Assembly: GCA_045805345.1 (NCBI GenBank)
Contig: JBJMLK010000141.1
Span: 1 to 58,684 of the forward strand
Direction of reading: 5' to 3'
Length of the DNA stretch: 58,684 nt
Source of the DNA: Thermoleophilaceae bacterium
GTDB taxonomy: Bacteria > Actinomycetota > Thermoleophilia > Solirubrobacterales > Thermoleophilaceae
The position numbers were made by a program, and so were the translations under genes. Of the stretch, positions 7,003 to 56,884 are shown piece by piece. The notes under the pieces were generated by a model. The model saw only the letters and a program-made list of their open reading frames with translations, was not told where the DNA came from and did no database searches. Positions within the stretch are counted from its first letter, which is position 1, and every line of letters starts with the position of its first letter.

Positions 7003-8138
7003 GTGCCGGCGCACTGGCCGGGGCACGTGGGCCTCGGGCTCACCGACTCGCCCGGCGGCGCGAAGGCGCTGCACAGGAGCATCCCGCAGCTCGACTTCCG
7101 CTACCAGTACCTGGCCGGCGGCGTGAACACCGGCGAGGGCTGGCGGACGTGGAACGAGAACGGCACGTTCGTGGACCGCTACATCGGCGAGACAGAGAAG
7201 AACCTGATGACGCCGGTCTTCAGCTACTACATGATCCGCCAGTCGCTGCCGGGTCGCGATGACGGCGACGAGCCCCATGCGGTGCTCTCGAACCTGCGCA
7301 ACGCGGCGACGATGAAGGCCTGGCTCGGCGACCTGCGAGCCTTCCTCGTGCACGCCGGGCGGTTTCCGAAGCGCACTGTGGTGCTCCAGGTGGAGCCGGA
7401 CATGTGGGGCTACGGCGAGCACGCCGCAGGGCACGACGACGCCGCCACCGTGCCGGTGGCGCGCGTGGGCAATCTGGCCGCGCTCGCTCGCCGGGTGGTG
7501 GCGATGCGCGGCAAGCTCGCGCCAACGTGCTGCTGGCCTACCACGCCAGCGAATGGGGCACGGGGGTGGACCTCTCCCTGAACGACCCGTCGCCCGCGGC
7601 GTCGGCCGCGCTGGGTAGGAAGGCAGGGCGGTTCTACCGCTCGCTGGGGGCGCGGTTCGACGTCACGTTCACCGACTGGTCCGACCGCGATGCCGCCTTC
7701 AAGCGCGCGATCTACGGCGCGGGGCCGGAGGCGTGGTGGACGGGCGCCGACCGCACCCGCGTGGTGCGCTTCACGCGCGCGTACTCGCTGAAGGCGCGCC
7801 AGCGCGTGGTGGTCTGGCAGCTGCCGCTGGGCAACACGATCATGCGAGCGATGAACAACAGCTGGGGGCACTACCAGGACAACCACGTGCAGTGGCTGCT
7901 GGGCCGCGACGGCCGCAAGCACCTGCGCGCGCTGCGCGATGCGGGCGCGATCGGCTTCCTGTTCGGCGGCGGCGCCGACGGCACCACGTGCGCCTGCGAC
8001 GCCAGCGGCGACGGCGTAACCAACCCGGCGCCGATCAACGGCAACTCGCGGAGGTCCTACAGCGCCGACGACGACGGCGGGTACTGGCGGCACCAGGCGC
8101 GAGCGTATTACCGCGCGGGCGGTGTGGGCCTCCGCTAG
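7003..8138 (+). pseudogene. Frameshifted glycosyl-hydrolase-like conserved hypothetical gene
   Basis: ORF 7003..7581 (frame 1) and ORF 7404..8138 (frame 3) read as one protein if a single nucleotide is added near 7519..7525 (...VVAMRGKLAP / NVLLAYHASEWGTGVD...). Frame 1 reaches a stop at 7579..7581. There is no canonical start upstream of a signal-peptide-like in-frame stretch. Confidence 0.55.
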
Positions 8139-8177
8139 CGCGGGCGCTCTCCGCGAGCGTGGCCGGCGCCGCCACCG

Positions 8178-8350
8178 CAAACAGCGGCTTTTAGGGGTGG
8201 GACCCGGCGCGGGTCGGTGGTCCCGGGGCCGGGTGGCACGTATTCCGTCAGCATGGCTGACGCTTTGCGTGCCACCCCTGCCGAGCACTGGGGTGGGTCG
8301 CCGAAGAGCCGACCGCGCGCCGCCGTAAATTGCGGGCTTCGGTGGAGCGG
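8178..8350 (+). repeat. Intergenic box-plus-nested-hairpin element, copy A (composite, with a degenerate second unit)
   Basis: Box CAAACAGCGGCTTTTAGGGGTGGG at 8178..8201. Small hairpin GACCCG-GCG-CGGGTC at 8201..8215. Nested hairpin at 8231..8277 (GGGTGGCACG TATTC CGTCAGC ATG GCTGACG CTTTG CGTGCCACCC). A degenerate second unit follows: GGGGTGGGTCG..CGACC at 8290..8314 and a box-like AAATTGCGGGCTTCGGTGGAG at 8327..8347. Confidence 0.6.
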
Positions 8351-8404: not shown

Positions 8405-9382
8405 TCAGGCGTCGATCGGCGACATGTCGGCGTAGCGGTCGCCGGCCGCCACGCCCGGGGGCGCGATCTCGTCGAGCCGGCGCAGGTCCTCGTCGGACAG
8501 CTGCACGTCGGCCGCCGCCGCGTTCTCCTCGAGGTACTTCACGCGCTTGGTGCCCGGGATCGGGACCACGTCGTCGCCCTGGTGCATCACCCAGGCGATC
8601 GCGAGCTGGCCCGCGGTGCAGCCCTTCTCGGCCGCCATCGCCTCGAGCCGGTCGACGATCTCGAGGTTGCGCTCCAGGTTCTCGCCCTGGAAGCGCGGGC
8701 CGCGCAGGCGCCGGAAGTCGTTCTCCTCGAACTGGTCCGCGGAGCGGTAGCGGCCCGACAGGAAGCCGCGGCCCAGCGGGCTGTACGGCACGAACCCGAT
8801 GCCCAGCTCGCGCACCGTCGGCAGGATCTCTTCCTCCACGTCGCGGGTCCACAGCGAGTACTCGGTCTGGAGCGCGCTGATCGGGTGCACAGCGTTCGCC
8901 CGGCGGATCGTGTCCGGCGCCGCCTCGGACAGGCCCAGGTGGAGCACCTTGCCCTGCTCGACCAGCTCGCCCATGGCCCCGACGGTCTCCTCGATCGGCA
9001 CCTTCTTGTCCACGCGGTGCTGGTAGTAGAGGTCGATGTGGTCGACGCCGAGGCGCTGGAGCGAGCCCTCGCACGCCGAGCGCACGTAGTCGGGATGACC
9101 GTTGATCCCCTTGAAGCTGCCGTCCTCGCCGCGCTCGTTGCCGAACTTCGTGGCGATCACGAACTCGTCGCGCCGGCCGTCGGTCGCGCGCGCCACCAGT
9201 CGCTCGTTGGTGAACGGCCCGTACATGTCCGCCGTGTCGAGGAAGTCGATGCCCAGCTCGCGGGCCCGGTGGATCGTCGCGATCGCCTCGTCCTCGTCGG
9301 CCGCGCCGTAGAACTCGGACATGCCCATGCAGCCGAGCCCCATGGCGGACACGTCGAGGTCGCGCAGCTTGCGGCGGTTCAT
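8405..9382 (-). CDS. Aldo/keto reductase family oxidoreductase
   Basis: Classic AKR blocks: [47 protein letters not shown] and [15 protein letters not shown]. Confidence 0.95.
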
Positions 9383-24937: not shown

Positions 24938-26134
24938 GTGACCCCAGCCAACGCAAGTGCCGCTCGACGCTTCGCCCCGGCAGGCTCCACACCTGAGGCC
25001 GAGCCCTGCCCGGACGACGGCGGCCGGCTCGTGGACGAGATAGTCGCGGCGATTCGCGAAGAGCTTCCGTCGTTCTTGGAGCTGGAGCTGGCCGAGGTCC
25101 GCCGGATGACGGCGTCCGACATCAGGCGCGGCCAGGCGGCGATGGCCGAGCGCCGCCTGCCGACGCCGGAGGAGCTCGAGGCCTCGGAGGCGGTGACGGC
25201 GACGCTCGCGCGCGCCGGCATCCCGCTGGCCGCGATCAACGAGTCGCGCCGGATCGCCGTCCGCAGGATCTTCGACGCCTGGCGCGAGCGAGCGCGAGAG
25301 GGCGGCACCGAGCCCGCGGACCAGGTCGAGTACCTCTACACGCTCTGGGACTGGACCGACGCGATCACGGCGCGCGCGGCCACCGCGTACCGGCTGGTCG
25401 AGGCGGAGGTCGCCGGGCGCGACGAGGACCAGCGGGCGTGGTACCTGCGCGGCCTGCTGGACGGGTCGCTCTCGCCACTCGAGGCCCAGAGCCGAGCGGC
25501 GGCGTACGGGCTCCTACCCGGCGGGCGCTACATCGCGCTGCGCGCCCGGCCGGGCGCGGACGTCGACGTCCGCCAGCTGCAGCGTGCGATCGAGACGTCC
25601 GGCGCGACCGACGACGGCGGCGTGCTGGCCGCGCCGGTGGACGGCCACCTGTGGGGCCTCGTGTCGAGGCCGCCGTCGATTGCCGACGGGCAGGGCGTGG
25701 TGGGACTGGGCACCCCGGGCGAGCTGAGCGCCGCCGCGGCCTCGTTCGTGCTCGCCGGCCGAGCGCTCGAGACCGCCACGGCGTTCGGGCGCACCGGCGT
25801 GGTCAGCATCGACGACCTCTCGCTGCGCCCGGTGATCCTCTCGGAGGACCACCTGGGCGAGCAGCTGATCCGCCGCTACCTCGGGCCGCTCCGCGAGCTG
25901 GGCGAGTTCGGAGCCACGCTCGAGCTGACGATCCAGGAGTACCTGGCGAGCGGCATGCGCATCGACGACTGCGCCAAGGCCCTGATCATCCACCCGAACA
26001 CGCTGCGCCACCGCATCGACCGCTTCCAGCAGCTCACCGGCGCCGACCTCCGCCGCACCGAGGACGTGATCGAGGTGTGGTGGGCGCTCGAGCGGCGCCG
26101 GGTCTCCGCCGGCCGCGCGGTCGCGCGACCGTAA
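24938..26134 (+). CDS. PucR/CdaR-family transcriptional regulator
   Basis: C-terminal HTH block TIQEYLASGMRIDDCAKALIIHPNTLRHRIDRFQQLTG. GTG start preceded by AGGAGA. Divergent from the S8 peptidase gene. Confidence 0.85.
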   Translation: MTPANASAARRFAPAGSTPEAEPCPDDGGRLVDEIVAAIREELPSFLELELAEVRRMTASDIRRGQAAMAERRLPTPEELEASEAVTATLARAGIPLAAINESRRIAVRRIFDAWRERAREGGTEPADQVEYLYTLWDWTDAITARAATAYRLVEAEVAGRDEDQRAWYLRGLLDGSLSPLEAQSRAAAYGLLPGGRYIALRARPGADVDVRQLQRAIETSGATDDGGVLAAPVDGHLWGLVSRPPSIADGQGVVGLGTPGELSAAAASFVLAGRALETATAFGRTGVVSIDDLSLRPVILSEDHLGEQLIRRYLGPLRELGEFGATLELTIQEYLASGMRIDDCAKALIIHPNTLRHRIDRFQQLTGADLRRTEDVIEVWWALERRRVSAGRAVARP

Positions 26135-26242
26135 AACAGCGGCAATAGAGGGGTGCCCGGCGTTGACTCGTCACTTATCCGGCCTATAGCGCGGTTAAGT
26201 GACGAGCGAACGTCCGAGCCCACCCTCAAAAGCCGCAGTTTG
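26134..26242. repeat. Intergenic box-plus-hairpin element, copy B (inverted-box arrangement between convergent genes)
   Basis: Minus-strand box CAAACTGCGGCTTTTGAGGGTGGG (26242..26219). A degenerate plus-strand box AAACAGCGGCAATAGAGGGGTGC begins at 26134. An inner 11-bp perfect hairpin CTCGTCACTTA..TAAGTGACGAG (26167..26206) encloses CTATAG. Confidence 0.55.
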
Positions 26243-26248
26243 CGAGGC

Positions 26249-26956
26249 CTAAGCGAGCAGCCCCAGCCGCTGCGCCCGCAGGATGGCCTCGGCCCGGTTG
26301 CGGGCCTTCATCTTGCGGTACAGCGCGCTGGTGTGGTCCTTCACCGTGTGCGGCGAGAGGAACAGCCGCTCGGCGATCTCCCGGTTGGTGGAGCCGCCGG
26401 CGATCATCTCGAGCACCTCGCGCTCGCGCTCGGTGAGCAGGTTGGGCGGCTGCTCGGACTCCGGCGCGAACACCGTCATCCCGAGCCCGACCATGCGTGC
26501 CGCGCCCGCGATGTCGCGCGCGCCCCAGCCCTTGGGGACGAAGCCGGCCGCACCGACGGCCTTCGCCGAATGCGCTGACACGCGGTCGACGCCCGACATC
26601 AGGAGCACGCGCGTGACGGGGGAGACGTCGCGCACCTGCTCGCACAGATCGGCGCCCGACTCGCCGCCCAGCTGCAGGTCGACCACCGCCACGTGCGGCT
26701 GGTAGCGGCGAGCGAGCTCGAGCGCCTGTGCGGAGTTGTGCGCGGCCACGAAGCGCTCGACCCACGGCTCCGCGGCGAGCAGCATCTTGAAGCCCCAGTG
26801 GATCAGGTCCTGGCCGTCGACCAGCAGGACGCGCAGCCGCCGTTGCTCGTCGGCCGGGGGAAGCGGCTTGCCGCCGCTGATGGCCACGAGCGAGCCGCCA
26901 TTCGCCCCATTCCCGGCGTCACCGACCAACGATGCTTGCCCCCTCATTTCGAACAT
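26249..26956 (-). CDS. NarL/LuxR-family response regulator (no kinase gene adjacent)
   Basis: Receiver blocks RVLLVDGQD, VAVVDLQLGG, VLLMSG and GFVPKG. LuxR HTH LTEREREVLEMIAGGSTNREIAERLFLSPHTVKDHTSALYRKM. The start is ambiguous: ATG at 26956 or 26947, possibly further downstream. Confidence 0.9.
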   Translation of the reverse strand: MFEMRGQASLVGDAGNGANGGSLVAISGGKPLPPADEQRRLRVLLVDGQDLIHWGFKMLLAAEPWVERFVAAHNSAQALELARRYQPHVAVVDLQLGGESGADLCEQVRDVSPVTRVLLMSGVDRVSAHSAKAVGAAGFVPKGWGARDIAGAARMVGLGMTVFAPESEQPPNLLTEREREVLEMIAGGSTNREIAERLFLSPHTVKDHTSALYRKMKARNRAEAILRAQRLGLLA

Positions 26957-32998: not shown

Positions 32999-33643
32999 AT
33001 GCGGGGACGGTGCTTGTTGGGAGTCGCGGCGTGCGCCGCGGGAATCGCGCTGGGGGCGACCGCCGCTCAGGCGGCGGACGTGCGCGGCGTGGAGGTCCGG
33101 CCGGGTACGCCGGGGCTGGAGCTCACGGCCGCGGCGGGCGAGCGTAACGACGTCAGGGTCGTGCAGAACCTGCACCCGTCGACGTCCTCGCCGGGCTCCC
33201 TCGACACGATCACCGTCGCCGACAGGGGGGCGACCCTCACGACCGGCGGCGACCACCCGTGCCGGCTGCTGTCGGCGCACAAGGCGCGCTGCGTGTCGTT
33301 CGCGGCCTCGTGGGCGACGGTCGAGTTGTCGCTCGGCGACGGCCCCGACCGCGTTCGGATGCCGTCGCTCTCCGGCTATCCCGCGACGACCATCTACTCG
33401 AACGGCGGCGACGGGAATCGCTTCTACGTGCGCGGCACGAACACCTGGGTCTGGGGCGCCGGCACCGGCGACCTCGTGCGCTTCCGGCCGCCCGGCGGCG
33501 GCGGCGTGATCGCCGGCGGCTCGCCGCGGCTGTGGCTCGTGGACGGCGCCGCGGAGTCCGTCGAGTGCAGGACGGCGGGCGACCCGCGGATCTTCGCCGA
33601 CCCGCTCGACACCGTCTCCTACTGCGGCAGCGCCTCCCCCTAG
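32999..33643 (+). CDS. Small secreted hypothetical protein (paralog A of 42745..43461)
   Basis: Signal peptide MRGRCLLGVAACAAGIALGATAAQA. Blocks shared with the paralog: LLSAHKARC, DGPDR, GNRF, VRF(R/K)PPGGGGVI(A/T)GGSP, LVDGA and DPLD. Confidence 0.7.
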   Translation: MRGRCLLGVAACAAGIALGATAAQAADVRGVEVRPGTPGLELTAAAGERNDVRVVQNLHPSTSSPGSLDTITVADRGATLTTGGDHPCRLLSAHKARCVSFAASWATVELSLGDGPDRVRMPSLSGYPATTIYSNGGDGNRFYVRGTNTWVWGAGTGDLVRFRPPGGGGVIAGGSPRLWLVDGAAESVECRTAGDPRIFADPLDTVSYCGSASP

Positions 33644-42744: not shown

Positions 42745-43461
42745 TTGAAGGAGCGTGAAAGCCGCGCGAAAGTGGTTCACTTCCACTGCGCGACAACCCA
42801 GGCAGGGGGCACCACGGGGAGAAAGCGGTTCGCGGCAGCGATGGCGGTATGCGTCGCCGGAGCGCTGTTCGCAGCGACGGCCGCGCAGGGGGCGATCGTC
42901 GAGGTCGGGGAGATCAGGCCTGGCGTTCCGGCGCTCTTCTTCACCGCCAACGCCGGCGAGCCCAACGACGTGGCCATTCGCCCCAAGGGCCGTATTTCGA
43001 CCTCGACCGACGACCTCGGGCTCTCTTACCACGTGATCACGGTGGTCGACGAGGGCTCGACGCTCACCACGGGCGGGTCCTACCCGTGCGTGCTGCTGTC
43101 GGCCCACAAGGCGCGCTGCACGTCGTTCGCCAACGGCTTCTCCTGGATCCAGTTCGATTTGCGCGACGGACCCGACCGCCTGAGCATGCCCGCCCGCGTC
43201 GGCTACCCAACGACCTTGATCTACAGCGACGGCGGGGGCAACCGCTTCACGGTGCGGGGCCCGTCGACCGAGGTGTATGGCGCCTTCACGGGCGACGTCG
43301 TCCGCTTCAAGCCGCCCGGCGGCGGTGGCGTGATCACGGGCGGCTCGCCGACGCTCAAGCTCGTCGACGGCGCGCCGGAGTACGTCGATTGCCGCCCGCC
43401 CGGCACCCCGCGGGTGTTCAGCGACCCGCTCGACTCCTTCAGCTCCTACTGCTCGGTCTAG
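42745..43461 (+). CDS. Small secreted hypothetical protein (paralog B of 32999..33643)
   Basis: It shares several identical blocks with paralog A. The signal-like segment is RKRFAAAMAVCVAGALFAATAAQGA. The start is uncertain: TTG 42745, GTG 42772 or ATG 42841. Confidence 0.7.
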   Translation: MKERESRAKVVHFHCATTQAGGTTGRKRFAAAMAVCVAGALFAATAAQGAIVEVGEIRPGVPALFFTANAGEPNDVAIRPKGRISTSTDDLGLSYHVITVVDEGSTLTTGGSYPCVLLSAHKARCTSFANGFSWIQFDLRDGPDRLSMPARVGYPTTLIYSDGGGNRFTVRGPSTEVYGAFTGDVVRFKPPGGGGVITGGSPTLKLVDGAPEYVDCRPPGTPRVFSDPLDSFSSYCSV

Positions 43462-43482: not shown

Positions 43483-44616
43483 ATGAACCCGTGGGTGGAG
43501 GCGGAGGGCGCACGCATAGCGCGGCGCGCTGAGCGCGAGCTGGAGGCGCTCGTGGGCATCTCCTCGCCCTCGGGCGACGACGCCGCCGCCGACGAGGCGC
43601 TGGCGATCTGCGCCGCGCTGCTGCCCGCCGATGCGGGCGTCGAGCGGATCCCGTGCTCCACCGACGGGTACGCCGACGACCTGCTCGCCACCCTCCGCGG
43701 CGGCGGCAGCGGGCGCGTGCTGCTGCTCGGCCACGTGGACACGGTCGTCGGCCACGACACCCACCGGGCGCTCGAGCGCAACGGCGACCGGCTGGTGGGG
43801 TCGGGCGCAGTCGACATGAAGGGCGGCGTGGTCCTCTCGCTGGGCGTGCTCGAGTCCCTGGCGGGGCGCCCCGAGGCGTTCGAGGAGGTCGCGCTGCTGC
43901 TTGTGACCGACGAGGAGTGGCGGGTCGGCGCCCTGCGCCACGCCGAGCGCTTCGCCGGCTACGACGCCTGCCTCTGCTTCGAGGCCGGGCAGGGCGGGCC
44001 GAACGGGGAGGAGGGCGTGGTCGTGAAGCGCAAGGCCGCCGCGACGCTCCGTGTGACCGCCACGGGGCGGGCCGCGCACAGCGGCTCCGCGCCCGACCGC
44101 GGCCGCAACGCCCTGCTGGCCCTGGCTGCCGCCGCTCAGCGCGTGGCCGACCTCCACGATCCGGGCGGCCCCGAGCGGCTCACCGTGGTCCCGACGATCA
44201 TCAACAGCGGCGAGGCGTTCAACGTCGTGCCGTCGGGCGGCGAGCTCTACTGCGACATGCGCGCCGAGCGCGCCGAGGCGTTCCACGCCGTGCACGACGT
44301 CGTGCCGGCCGAGGTGGGCGGCGCGACGCTGCAGCCCGAGATCGTCCGGCTGTGGCCGGGCATGGACGCCCGCGACGCGACCGCGGGCCTGCTGGCGCGC
44401 GCTACGGCCGAGCTGGGGCGGCCGGTGTTCGGCGTCGAGCGCGGCGGCGCGAGCGACGCGAGCCACCTGGCGGGCGTGGTGCCGCTCACCGTCGATGGGC
44501 TCGGCCCGCGCGGCGGCGGCGCGCACAACCCTGACGAGTACGTGCACGCGGAGACGCTCCACTCGCGCGCGGAGGTGGCGCTGGCGCTGGTGGCGGCGTT
44601 GCTCGACGTGAGCTGA
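43483..44616 (+). CDS. M20-family metallopeptidase (carboxypeptidase G2 / glutamate carboxypeptidase-like)
   Basis: Blocks LLLGHVDTV, GSGAVDMKGG, LLVTDEEW and GRAAHSG. Confidence 0.9.
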   Translation: MNPWVEAEGARIARRAERELEALVGISSPSGDDAAADEALAICAALLPADAGVERIPCSTDGYADDLLATLRGGGSGRVLLLGHVDTVVGHDTHRALERNGDRLVGSGAVDMKGGVVLSLGVLESLAGRPEAFEEVALLLVTDEEWRVGALRHAERFAGYDACLCFEAGQGGPNGEEGVVVKRKAAATLRVTATGRAAHSGSAPDRGRNALLALAAAAQRVADLHDPGGPERLTVVPTIINSGEAFNVVPSGGELYCDMRAERAEAFHAVHDVVPAEVGGATLQPEIVRLWPGMDARDATAGLLARATAELGRPVFGVERGGASDASHLAGVVPLTVDGLGPRGGGAHNPDEYVHAETLHSRAEVALALVAALLDVS

Positions 44617-44627
44617 GCACAGGGGCG

Positions 44628-44704
44628 CAAACAGCGGCTTTCGAGAGTGGGTCGGCAAGGGGTGGGTCGAATTCCGTCAGCCGCGCTGACGCTTCTCGAC
44701 CCAC
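44628..44704 (+). repeat. Intergenic box-plus-nested-hairpin element, copy C
   Basis: Box CAAACAGCGGCTTTCGAGAGTGGG at 44628..44651. Nested hairpin at 44662..44704 (GTGGGTCGA ATTC CGTCAGC CGC GCTGACG CTTC TCGACCCAC). Confidence 0.6.
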
Positions 44705-44721
44705 GTGCCGATAACGCTCGC

Positions 44722-45285
44722 ATGGGTCGCCGCCCCATACGAGCCTGCCTGCTCGGTTGCCTCTGTTCGGTGGCGCTGCTGCTTGCGGCGGCGCAGACCG
44801 CCAGCGCCGGCGACATCGACCCCTACGCCTACGACTACGCGCACGGCTGCCGCAAGCACCCCCAGCCGGGCATGCTCGCCATGCAGCGGTGGCTCGAGCA
44901 CCACGCGAAGGGCGAGTCCTGGGGGATCATGCGCTGCGAGAAGCTCACGAGCGACACCTACAGTCTCCACTCGGAGGGCCGCGCGCTCGACTGGCACCTC
45001 GACGCGCACGACAGGTCGGACCGGAAGGAGGCGCGCCGCCTCATCCACCTGTTCCTGAAGCGCGACCGCCATGGCAACAACCACGCGCTGGCGCGCCGCA
45101 TGGGCATCCAGGAGCTGATCTGGAACTGCCGCTCCTGGTGGGCGGGCGACGGCGGGATGCAGCCGTACTCGGTGTGCGAGCACGGGCACGTGGACGACAC
45201 GACCGGCCACCGCAACCACATCCACATCGGCCTCAACTGGCGCGGCGCGAAGATGAAGACGACCTTCTGGCGCACGCGGCGCTAG
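44722..45285 (+). CDS. Secreted LAS-superfamily (M15/extensin-like) zinc peptidase, probable cell-wall hydrolase
   Basis: An internal ATG at 44722 gives the signal peptide MGRRPIRACLLGCLCSVALLLAAAQTASA. HSEGRALDWH (HxxxxxxD) and HRNHIHIG (HxH) resemble LAS metallopeptidase ligand motifs. Confidence 0.65.
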   Translation: MGRRPIRACLLGCLCSVALLLAAAQTASAGDIDPYAYDYAHGCRKHPQPGMLAMQRWLEHHAKGESWGIMRCEKLTSDTYSLHSEGRALDWHLDAHDRSDRKEARRLIHLFLKRDRHGNNHALARRMGIQELIWNCRSWWAGDGGMQPYSVCEHGHVDDTTGHRNHIHIGLNWRGAKMKTTFWRTRR

Positions 45286-49649: not shown

Positions 49650-49701
49650 CCGGCGCCGGCTCGCTGGCTATGTACGGGTGCTCGGGCGGTGTCTCCAAGA
49701 C

Positions 49702-49745
49702 GAGGGTCCATTTCCAACGGCTATAGCCACTAGAAAAGGACCCTC
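49702..49745. other. AT-rich hairpin GAGGGTCC-N28-GGACCCTC enclosing the perfect palindrome GGCTATAGCC
   Basis: Read from the sequence in the 111-nt gap between convergent rnd and the M16 peptidase gene. The inner palindrome is at 49719..49728. A second small hairpin CCGCC-GTG-GGCGG lies at 49748..49760. Confidence 0.4.
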
Positions 49746-49760
49746 ATCCGCCGTGGGCGG

Positions 49761-55861: not shown

Positions 55862-56884
55862 GTGGCTGATCTGCAGGCCAAGGACTTGAAGTTGATCCAG
55901 TACCTCAACGAGGCGTACGGCAAGGAGAAGCAGCTCGAGACGGCGCTCACCGCGCACATCCAGATGACGACGCGCGCGCCGTACAAGAAGCGCCTACAGC
56001 AGCACCTGACCGAGACCAAGCGGCACGCCCGCGAGGTCGAGCGGCGCATCAAGAAGCTCGGCGGCAAGGCCGACGAGGTGAGCGTCCCGGGTCCGGATGC
56101 CGTGACCGAGGCCGCGACGAGCGCGCTCGAGCTGGCCAGGCGAGGCGCGGCTGCGCTTCAGGGACCGATCCACGTCCTGCGCGGCACCGGCGAGCAGGAG
56201 AAGCTCCTCAAGAACGCCAAGACGGAGTTCCAGGACGAGGCCGAGGAGATCGCGACCTACCTCTCGATCGAGCACCTCGCGAACCTGGTCGGCGACAAGG
56301 AGACCGCCAAGCTCGCGAAGAGCATCCGCCGCGAGGAGGAGCGCATGCGCGACTTCCTCGGCCGGCTGATCCCGCAGCTCACGAAGGCGGTCGCGACCGA
56401 GGAGATCCCGGCCGCCGAGCGCAAGACCGGACGCCGCGGCAGCCGGCGCGCGTCGTCGCGCCGCAGCTCGTCCTCGAGCTCGCGCTCGTCGGGCTCGCGG
56501 TCGTCGAGCTCGCGGTCGTCCGGCTCGAGCTCCTCGCGCTCGCGGTCCGGGTCGAGCTCGAGCAGTCGATCGTCGGGCAGCCGCTCGGGCGGCTCGCGCT
56601 CGAGCAGCTCCCGGGCGTCAAGCAGCCGTTCGTCGGGCAGCCGTTCGGGTGGCACCCGGTCGTCGGGCACCCGGTCGTCGGGCACCCGGTCGTCGGGCAG
56701 CCGTTCGGGTGGCAGCCGTTCGTCGGGTACCCGTTCGTCGGGCAGCCGGTCGGGCGGCTCGCGCTCGAGCAGCTCGCGGTCGTCGGGCACCCGTTCCTCG
56801 GCCAGCCGTTCGGGGGGCACCCGCTCGTCGGGCAGCCGTTCGGGGGGCTCGCGCTCCGGCAGCTCGCGCTCCAAGTCCAGCTAG
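55862..56884 (+). CDS. Ferritin-like YciE/DUF892 family protein with a ~150-aa Ser/Arg/Gly repeat tail
   Basis: The N-terminal ~185 aa (LIQYLNEAYGKEKQLETALTAHI...EIATYLSIEHLA...) resemble YciE/DUF892 four-helix-bundle proteins. Residues ~188-340 are almost entirely S, R, G and T. Confidence 0.85.
   Translation: MADLQAKDLKLIQYLNEAYGKEKQLETALTAHIQMTTRAPYKKRLQQHLTETKRHAREVERRIKKLGGKADEVSVPGPDAVTEAATSALELARRGAAALQGPIHVLRGTGEQEKLLKNAKTEFQDEAEEIATYLSIEHLANLVGDKETAKLAKSIRREEERMRDFLGRLIPQLTKAVATEEIPAAERKTGRRGSRRASSRRSSSSSSRSSGSRSSSSRSSGSSSSRSRSGSSSSSRSSGSRSGGSRSSSSRASSSRSSGSRSGGTRSSGTRSSGTRSSGSRSGGSRSSGTRSSGSRSGGSRSSSSRSSGTRSSASRSGGTRSSGSRSGGSRSGSSRSKSS
56423..56881 (+). repeat. Coding tandem repeat region (15- and 30-nt units encoding SGTRS / SGSRSGGSRS)
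   Basis: An example is GGCACCCGGTCGTCG repeated three times in tandem near 56650..56694, flanked by related units. The region is in frame with the YciE-like domain. Confidence 0.8.

Follow-up and report, generated by a model that had tools for sequence, protein, structure and literature searches.

Palindromic intergenic DNA repeats with exchangeable hairpin modules in uncultured soil Thermoleophilaceae

The 58,684-nucleotide contig of a Thermoleophilaceae bacterium that was analyzed here (the window) contains three copies, designated A, B and C, of an intergenic element composed of a conserved box and nested hairpins. The element is probably a mobile or recombining palindromic DNA repeat, specific to a lineage of uncultured soil Thermoleophilaceae, with a probable side-role as a 3′ hairpin. 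It is a previously undescribed relative of the small interspersed intergenic palindromes of the MITE, REP-BIME and ERIC kind rather than a new RNA gene, and it has no coding capacity.

Boxes, modules and the 115-bp unit

A preliminary description of this DNA had reported a 24-nt box at three intergenic sites, each followed by a two-tier hairpin. The three boxes are confirmed at 8178-8201(+), 44628-44651(+) and 26219-26242(-), with one or two mismatches to the consensus, and the chance expectation is 0, as a match was absent from 100 of 100 dinucleotide-preserving shuffles of the window. The dinucleotide CG precedes the 24-mer in every copy, and the conserved box is therefore 26 nt long (8176-8201, 44626-44651 and 26219-26244), with the consensus CG-YAAAC-AGCGGC-(TTT or AAT)-nnn-GGGG. 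The box comes in two end flavours, a T-type (GCGGC-TTTYRAGRG) and an A-type (GCGGC-AATnnnGGGG). A fourth box, inverted and previously overlooked, lies at 26130-26155(+), which makes four in the window and shows that copy B is a complete 115-nt palindrome. A profile search with nhmmer yielded 25 boxes at 18-26 bits; the weaker recognizable boxes, at about 5-12 bits, are solely divergent or degenerate ends of the same elements.

The gaps between a stop codon and the 24-mer, earlier given as 6 to 39 nt, measure 39, 11 and 6 nt for the copies at 8178, 44628 and 26242 (stop codons 8136-8138, 44614-44616 and 26249-26251, respectively). When box positions were recorded relative to stop codons throughout the family, as had been proposed, a long-ORF stop codon on the same strand was found -3 to 43 nt upstream of 17 of the 22 boxes scored, and most of the other five lie too near a contig end for such scoring. 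The stop codon falls inside the box at the PucR-like gene of the window and in the related contigs L087 and L061. A Shine-Dalgarno-like role of AAAGGGGTG was considered and dropped for want of support. A GTG in the box opens reading frames through element A and through element C, the latter in frame with the downstream gene; a small-ORF or MIRU-like reading of these frames was rejected, and they are taken as a by-product of the 73% G+C content.

The palindromic element has the box as its terminal inverted repeat. Its canonical unit spans exactly 115 bp in element B (26130-26244) and in three copies from metagenome contigs, L011 (2357-2471), L035 (7-121) and L087 (277-391). These copies have imperfect terminal inverted repeats of 26-28 nt, the two ends agreeing at 18-22 of 28 terminal positions, and full-length copies fold as single long imperfect hairpins. 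Element B fills the gap between the convergent genes of a PucR-like regulator and a LuxR-type response regulator. Its loop contains the motif CTATAGGCCGG, which is common to other copies of the B type; such copies have a longer central stem and a loop with a shared CTATAGGCSG-like motif.

In one subfamily, to which elements A and C belong, the center is occupied by a second building block, the module (Table 1). It is exactly 45 bp long (10+4+17+4+10) in all 11 copies, nine besides those of A and C, and the copies come from at least five genomes. The module consists of two 10-bp arms and, between them, a 17-nt core set off by 4 nt on either side; the core has CG at both ends and often a TATA-like center. 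A covariance model, which the preliminary description had recommended, was built for this module and scanned against the 58.7-kb window and 164 kb of related DNA; true copies scored 45-61 bits on their better-scoring strand and everything else at most 13 bits. Element A is flanked by a hypothetical gene and, in convergent orientation, by an aldo/keto reductase gene (stop codon at 8405), which its right repeat faces. The segment 8290-8347, earlier regarded as a degenerate second unit, is really a rearranged remnant together with the degenerate right repeat that pairs with the left box. Element C comprises a box, a spacer and a module (44626-44705) and has no right box; it follows the M20 peptidase gene and precedes a co-directional secreted-protein gene that starts at 44722. 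The 8-mer GTGGGTCG is duplicated within it, at 44647 and 44662.

Table 1 Parts of elements A, B and C and their positions in the window.
Feature	Position	Strand	Remarks
A, left terminal box, T-type CGCAAACAGCGGCTTTTAGGGGTGGG	8176..8201	+	nhmmer 25.5 bits; 37 nt past stop 8136-8138
A, spacer hairpin GGGACC...GGTCCC between box and module	8199..8224	+	fold
A, nested hairpin module, 45 nt	8232..8276	+	covariance model 60.9 bits; next unrelated match 13 bits
A, module arms	8232-8241, 8267-8276	+	internal loops ATTC, CTTT
A, inner hairpin CGTCAGC-ATG-GCTGACG	8246-8262	+	within the 45-nt module
A, rearranged remnant	8277..8318	+	arm-like GGGGTGGGTCG at 8290-8300; small hairpin 8296-8314
A, degenerate right terminal repeat GCCGCCGTAAATTGCG	8319..8334	+	pairs with left box
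B, terminal box, A-type CGTAAAACAGCGGCAATAGAGGGGTG	26130..26155	+	encloses TAA stop of PucR-like gene (26132-26134)
B, central palindrome	26161..26212	.	stem CTCGTCACTTA/TAAGTGACGAG at 26167-26177 and 26196-26206
B, terminal box, T-type	26219..26244	-	4 nt past stop of LuxR-type response regulator gene
C, terminal box, T-type	44626..44651	+	9 nt past stop of M20 peptidase gene (44614-44616)
C, module, 45 nt	44661..44705	+	arms GGTGGGTCGA, TCGACCCACG; covariance model 57.7 bits
C, inner hairpin CGTCAGC-CGC-GCTGACG	44675-44691	+	within the 45-nt module

Gain, loss and exchange at orthologous sites

Within the clade, the element has inserted where convergent or tandem genes overlap or are separated by a very short gap. 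The syntenic outgroup contigs L012, L013 and L098 (84-76% protein identity) carry no element at any of four sites; at the A, B and asparaginase sites their genes are separated by 15 nt or 11 nt or have overlapping stop codons, and no element lies downstream of the M20 gene. A copy between the asparaginase and F420H2-dependent reductase genes of a relative with ~90% identity (L095, 19445-19524) is absent from the window, where the convergent stop codons of the equivalent site overlap in the palindrome CTAG (2451-2454). The 4-nt overlap of a convergent pair in L013 (3254-3257) represents the empty state of a site that carries the element in relatives. The window holds three elements in 58.7 kb and the L011/L095 contig four in 37 kb, versus none in 63 kb of outgroup DNA.

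The element has also been gained and partly lost between close relatives. At the A site the window has one module and L096 (95% identity) has two, a second full module occupying the place of the remnant 8277-8318; one of the two modules has non-complementary chimeric arms. The same site has a different core and only one box in L097, and degenerate boxes in L095. At the C site four relatives carry a box and a module with inner stems CGTCAGC/GCTGACG, CGTCAAC/GTTGACG, CGTTCC/GGAACG and CGTTCG..GGAACG, and L090 has a box-like remnant alone. A CTGCCGA motif that follows modules was examined as a candidate part of the element; at the C site it is kept in the module-less L090 and is therefore flank. 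Contigs assembled from four soil runs differ around and within box A by the substitutions 8160 T>C and 8183 A>G and by single-nucleotide deletions at 8163 and 8211, which represent two coexisting strain variants, each at about half depth. Among these near-identical strains, the box A region showed point variants only and no deletion or inversion joints.

Modules have been exchanged between sites and inverted, with palindromy kept symmetrically on both strands. The cores of elements A and C, from different sites of the same genome, match at 21 of 25 positions, and those of the orthologous C copies of the window and L011 at only 13 of 25. Two cores from the same contig, those of the L011 C copy and of a further copy (L095b), match at 23 of 25 positions when one is reverse-complemented and at 14 of 25 in direct orientation. 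This pattern indicates that cores were swapped from site to site and inverted with respect to the box. In every copy the flanks read CG...CG, which also belongs to the palindrome, and the polarised insertion seen in L095 versus the window is untidy at its borders; a clean target-site duplication was not found.

Other rearranged or palindromic sequences were seen in the same loci. A box-less 50-nt nested palindrome, GACGAGGGTCC-ATTTCCAAC-GGCTATAGCC-ACTAGAAAA-GGACCCTCATC, occupies 49699-49748 of the window between convergent RNase D-like and M16 peptidase genes; this junction measures 6 nt in L012 and contains different palindromes in L011 (16140-16215, an unrelated nested palindrome). Convergent junctions of the clade seem to be generally colonised by fast-turning palindromes. 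In L032 two family elements lie about 300 nt apart (1086-1215 and ~1390-1522), and a flank of ~35 nt, GGCCGGGGGCGAGGCTTCACGGAGCCCGACT, is repeated after the right end of each, which suggests that an element end was included in a segmental duplication. The window also contains paralogous gene copies at ~33200-33630 and ~43030-43460, 74-80% identical and 9824-9827 nt apart. The pair brackets about 9.8 kb that is missing from the syntenic L011, L012 and L013 loci and that encodes an alpha/beta hydrolase, a GT28-like glycosyltransferase, an HTH-methyltransferase and a 1357-aa BTAD-cyclase-AAA-TPR regulator.

Under RNA and DNA parameters alike, the hairpins adopt the two-tier fold given in the preliminary description, and the differences between the arms of A and C (CA:TG to GT:AC and T.G to A:T) are real in the module alignment. 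What had been taken for compensatory changes are, however, alternative whole arm and core blocks of a mosaic DNA repeat, which were exchanged between sites and even flipped. Across the 11 modules 88.6% of the cells are paired, compared with 26-43% in slid controls; double changes occur in 8 of the 16 module pairs, and the covariation score was reached by 0 of 500 shuffles. These statistics are indicative only because the sample, of about 25 boxes and 11 modules, is small and includes several orthologous copies, and relatedness inflates them. The earlier proposal of a selected structure thus stands insofar as the element is repeated and non-random and its hairpin is kept despite sequence change.

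Of the two forms proposed for that structure, an RNA or a DNA cruciform, the results favor the cruciform or palindrome over a selected RNA. Pair changes in the modules comprise 19 double-sided and a single one-sided (wobble-type) change, and the DNA-fold z-scores of the two strands are -7.9/-6.8 for B, -3.5/-4.1 for A and -2.1/-3.3 for C. Folding that is symmetric between strands, together with the near absence of wobble changes, indicates palindromy at the DNA level and not selection on one transcript. The dispensability of the element at orthologous junctions, the tolerated chimeric arms and the flipping of cores likewise point to the DNA. The combined evidence argues that the constraint, or the generating mechanism, acts on DNA, either through a hairpin or cruciform substrate or through arm-to-arm copying. 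No U-tract (Rho-independent) terminator was called at the three window copies, whose tails read GTTTG or GTTTTA, and no sigma-70-like promoter was called there.

Distribution and comparison with known repeats

Copies exist beyond the window. A restrictive pattern run against 241 million metagenome records returned 76 matches, about 12 of which are true copies and ~64 chance matches. The true copies all lie on related soil contigs of 0.67-0.76 G+C, so that the search for further copies suggested in the preliminary description did find them. The DNA of the window itself (G+C 72.9%) is present in soil metagenome runs, and among named matches the best for the flanking proteins come from Thermoleophilaceae metagenome bins; an exact look-up of the window proteins returned no record. 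A search of RNA runs found none that contains the locus, and the one soil metatranscriptome with distant word matches does not cover it. A scan of the GTDB genomes, a collection that lacks the genome of the window, gave ten matches to the box pattern. The four that were read (L002, L003, L007 and L009) lie inside a reading frame with the motif SNRGFAEWG, which we take to be that of an IS21-family IstB protein, and all ten were rejected as chance matches. This IstB-like frame is a likely source of false positives in searches with the box pattern. Neither the box pattern nor the module pattern matched any viral contig, and a literature search on repeats in Thermoleophilia found nothing. Rfam gave no match at the gathering threshold and, at E<=10, only sub-threshold hits of at most 23 bits, far below gathering and mostly to generic miRNA-precursor-like hairpins. 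The earlier failure to assign the element to a known ncRNA is thereby upheld, as no described RNA family in Rfam matches it.

No transposase, RAYT or recombinase was present in the scanned window ORFs or among the Pfam domains listed for about 160 kb of related contigs. Similarly, a RAYT (PF01797-type) gene was found in none of the locus listings, which cover about 220 kb of the clade, and no parent insertion sequence or autonomous element with the same ends was detected in the scanned window ORFs, the related-locus listings or the 76 metagenome matches. Among the window ORFs, one on the minus strand (56257-56880) contains a 15-nt periodic array at 56446-56868 with about 25 pentapeptide repeats P-[DP]-[ED]-R-[LV]; the predicted protein is acidic and has no Pfam match.

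The family resembles the REP and BIME sequences of Enterobacteria and Pseudomonas in that its members are short extragenic palindromes at gene 3′ ends and between convergent genes. As in BIMEs, different units combine as a mosaic, in either orientation and clustered at one site. REPINs are described as having conserved inverted ends around a less conserved spacer, whose length is constant and whose hairpin is maintained by compensatory change (PMC3116915), and the family similarly has two conserved units inverted around a hairpin-forming spacer of kept length. REP units are imperfect palindromes, 20-40 nt long, that carry a 5′ GT(A/G)G head (PMC2817692). Unlike REP, the box of the family is not self-complementary, a TAGG-like head occurs in some copies only with no consistent GT(A/G)G, and the host is an actinobacterial lineage rather than a proteobacterium. 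The loop of element B (26178-26195) carries TAGGCCGGATAAG, a 13-nt identity to the Salmonella/E. coli REP head, and the Haemophilus REP GTAGGGTGGGTC..GACCCACC is similar to the module arms TAGGGGTGGGTCGA/TCGACCCACC (both PMC2817692, Table 1). BLAST searches against 5,426 E. coli genomes gave nothing meaningful and no extended similarity to REP, and a search of a plasmid collection with element B was equally empty; the REP-like 13-mer is therefore not evidence of homology. Both similarities are short sequence resemblances and are treated as leads only.

The non-coding units of 100-160 bp with terminal inverted repeats of ~25 bp are reminiscent of MITEs, such as the Correia elements of Neisseria, and of ERIC/IRU sequences. 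In common with Correia and ERIC, the family has two end flavours, length variants and insertion polymorphism between close relatives, sits in transcribed intergenic DNA and forms long hairpins. Unlike in MITEs, swapping and flipping affect its nested palindromic interior of fixed length independently of the ends. Both the family and integron attC sites are imperfect palindromes with conserved outer cores and a variable center that lie directly past stop codons and are regarded as folded DNA. The attC core consensus is R'' RYYYAAC / R' GTTRRRY; the ends of the family, CGCAAAC/GTTTGCG, do not match it. In further contrast to attC sites, the copies are about 18 kb apart and form no arrays, their neighbors are syntenic housekeeping genes, and the locus listings contain no integrase. 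Mycobacterial MIRUs are likewise actinobacterial intergenic repeats, of 40-100 bp, that occur in or after operons near or overlapping the flanking stop or start codons; unlike the family, they are tandem direct repeats with small coupled ORFs and have neither nested palindromes nor terminal inverted repeats. As it fits none of REP, MITE and attC in full, the repeat is assigned to no named family.

Origin, spread and biological meaning

As a mobile or recombining DNA repeat, the element would spread through an enzyme supplied in trans (a transposase, an HUH enzyme or a recombinase) or by copies recombining with one another. This spread would use the hairpin or cruciform form as its substrate, which would explain the preservation of pairing. 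Copies would persist only in the 3′ space just past stop codons, presumably because this genome of 73% G+C offers TA-containing targets and tolerated space mainly there; the window contains 589 TA dinucleotides versus 1078 expected. Once inserted, the element would supply both flanking transcripts with a very stable 3′ hairpin and sometimes with a stop codon as well. Its secondary role is probably that of a putative terminator, mRNA-end protector or insulator.

The element could instead be a cis-acting 3′-UTR RNA under selection, serving as a terminator (possibly bidirectional), an mRNA-stabilizing hairpin or a protein-binding RNA with the box as recognition sequence. Such a role would account for the location just past the stop codon of the upstream gene and in its sense orientation, for the filling of convergent intergenic gaps, for very stable hairpins whose pairing is maintained via double changes and for the AAAC...GTTT(T) ends, which form a weak A-tract/U-tract arrangement. 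It is nevertheless rather unlikely: none of the window copies was called as a U-tract terminator, wobble intermediates are almost absent and the two strands fold equally well, close relatives lack the element at the same junctions, L096 tolerates chimeric non-complementary arms, the core flips relative to both the box and the upstream gene, and Rfam offers no matching family. That similar GC-rich intergenic palindromes, or ordinary lineage-specific terminators, arose with no common origin is scarcely credible. The unrelated nested palindromes at other convergent junctions (window 49699-49748; L011 16140-16215) and the 73% G+C of the genome speak for such a chance likeness, which is refuted by the absence of the box from all 100 shuffles, by 25 boxes scoring 18-26 bits, by module scores of 45-61 bits against noise of at most 13 bits and by the identical lengths of 115 nt and 45 nt.

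A reading of the copies as site-specific recombination sites (integron attC-like, or of an integrase/Xer system), recognized in folded or duplex form by a recombinase that inverts or exchanges segments, would agree with imperfect palindromes of fixed length with conserved ends, a variable center and a TATA-like middle. The position at ORF 3′ ends with stop codons within the end box, the cores exchanged and inverted between sites and the rearranged A site would fit as well. We regard this as very unlikely, given that the CGCAAAC/GTTTGCG ends misfit the attC R''/R' consensus, that the flanking genes are conserved syntenic core genes and not cassettes, that an integrase or recombinase gene appears in no locus listing and that copies are spaced about 18 kb apart without arrays. 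A bolder proposal, and a doubtful one, is that the 45-bp module is an independent recombination unit, which a Thermoleophilia enzyme would copy, swap and flip between box-marked sites as a DNA hairpin or cruciform. The composite would then colonise abutting or overlapping convergent stop codons, bringing its own stops and a two-way transcription stop. If true, this would be a new mechanism for the creation of intergenic space and the engineering of 3′ ends. We know of no REP/RAYT or integron system in this phylum.

In the well-studied Proteobacteria, REP/BIME, REPIN, ERIC and Correia sequences shape transcription ends, mRNA stability and genome rearrangement. To our knowledge, very little is known of interspersed palindromic repeats in deep actinobacterial lineages represented by soil metagenome bins alone. 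The present family displays, at base-pair resolution, how compact convergent junctions, some with once overlapping stop codons, are opened by inserted palindromes, which afterwards evolve through module swapping and flipping. It is a ready strain-typing marker for the clade and a concrete substrate for finding the enzyme that moves it. If the hairpin acts as a bidirectional terminator that needs no U-tract, it would also bear on the question of transcription termination in high-GC Actinobacteria.
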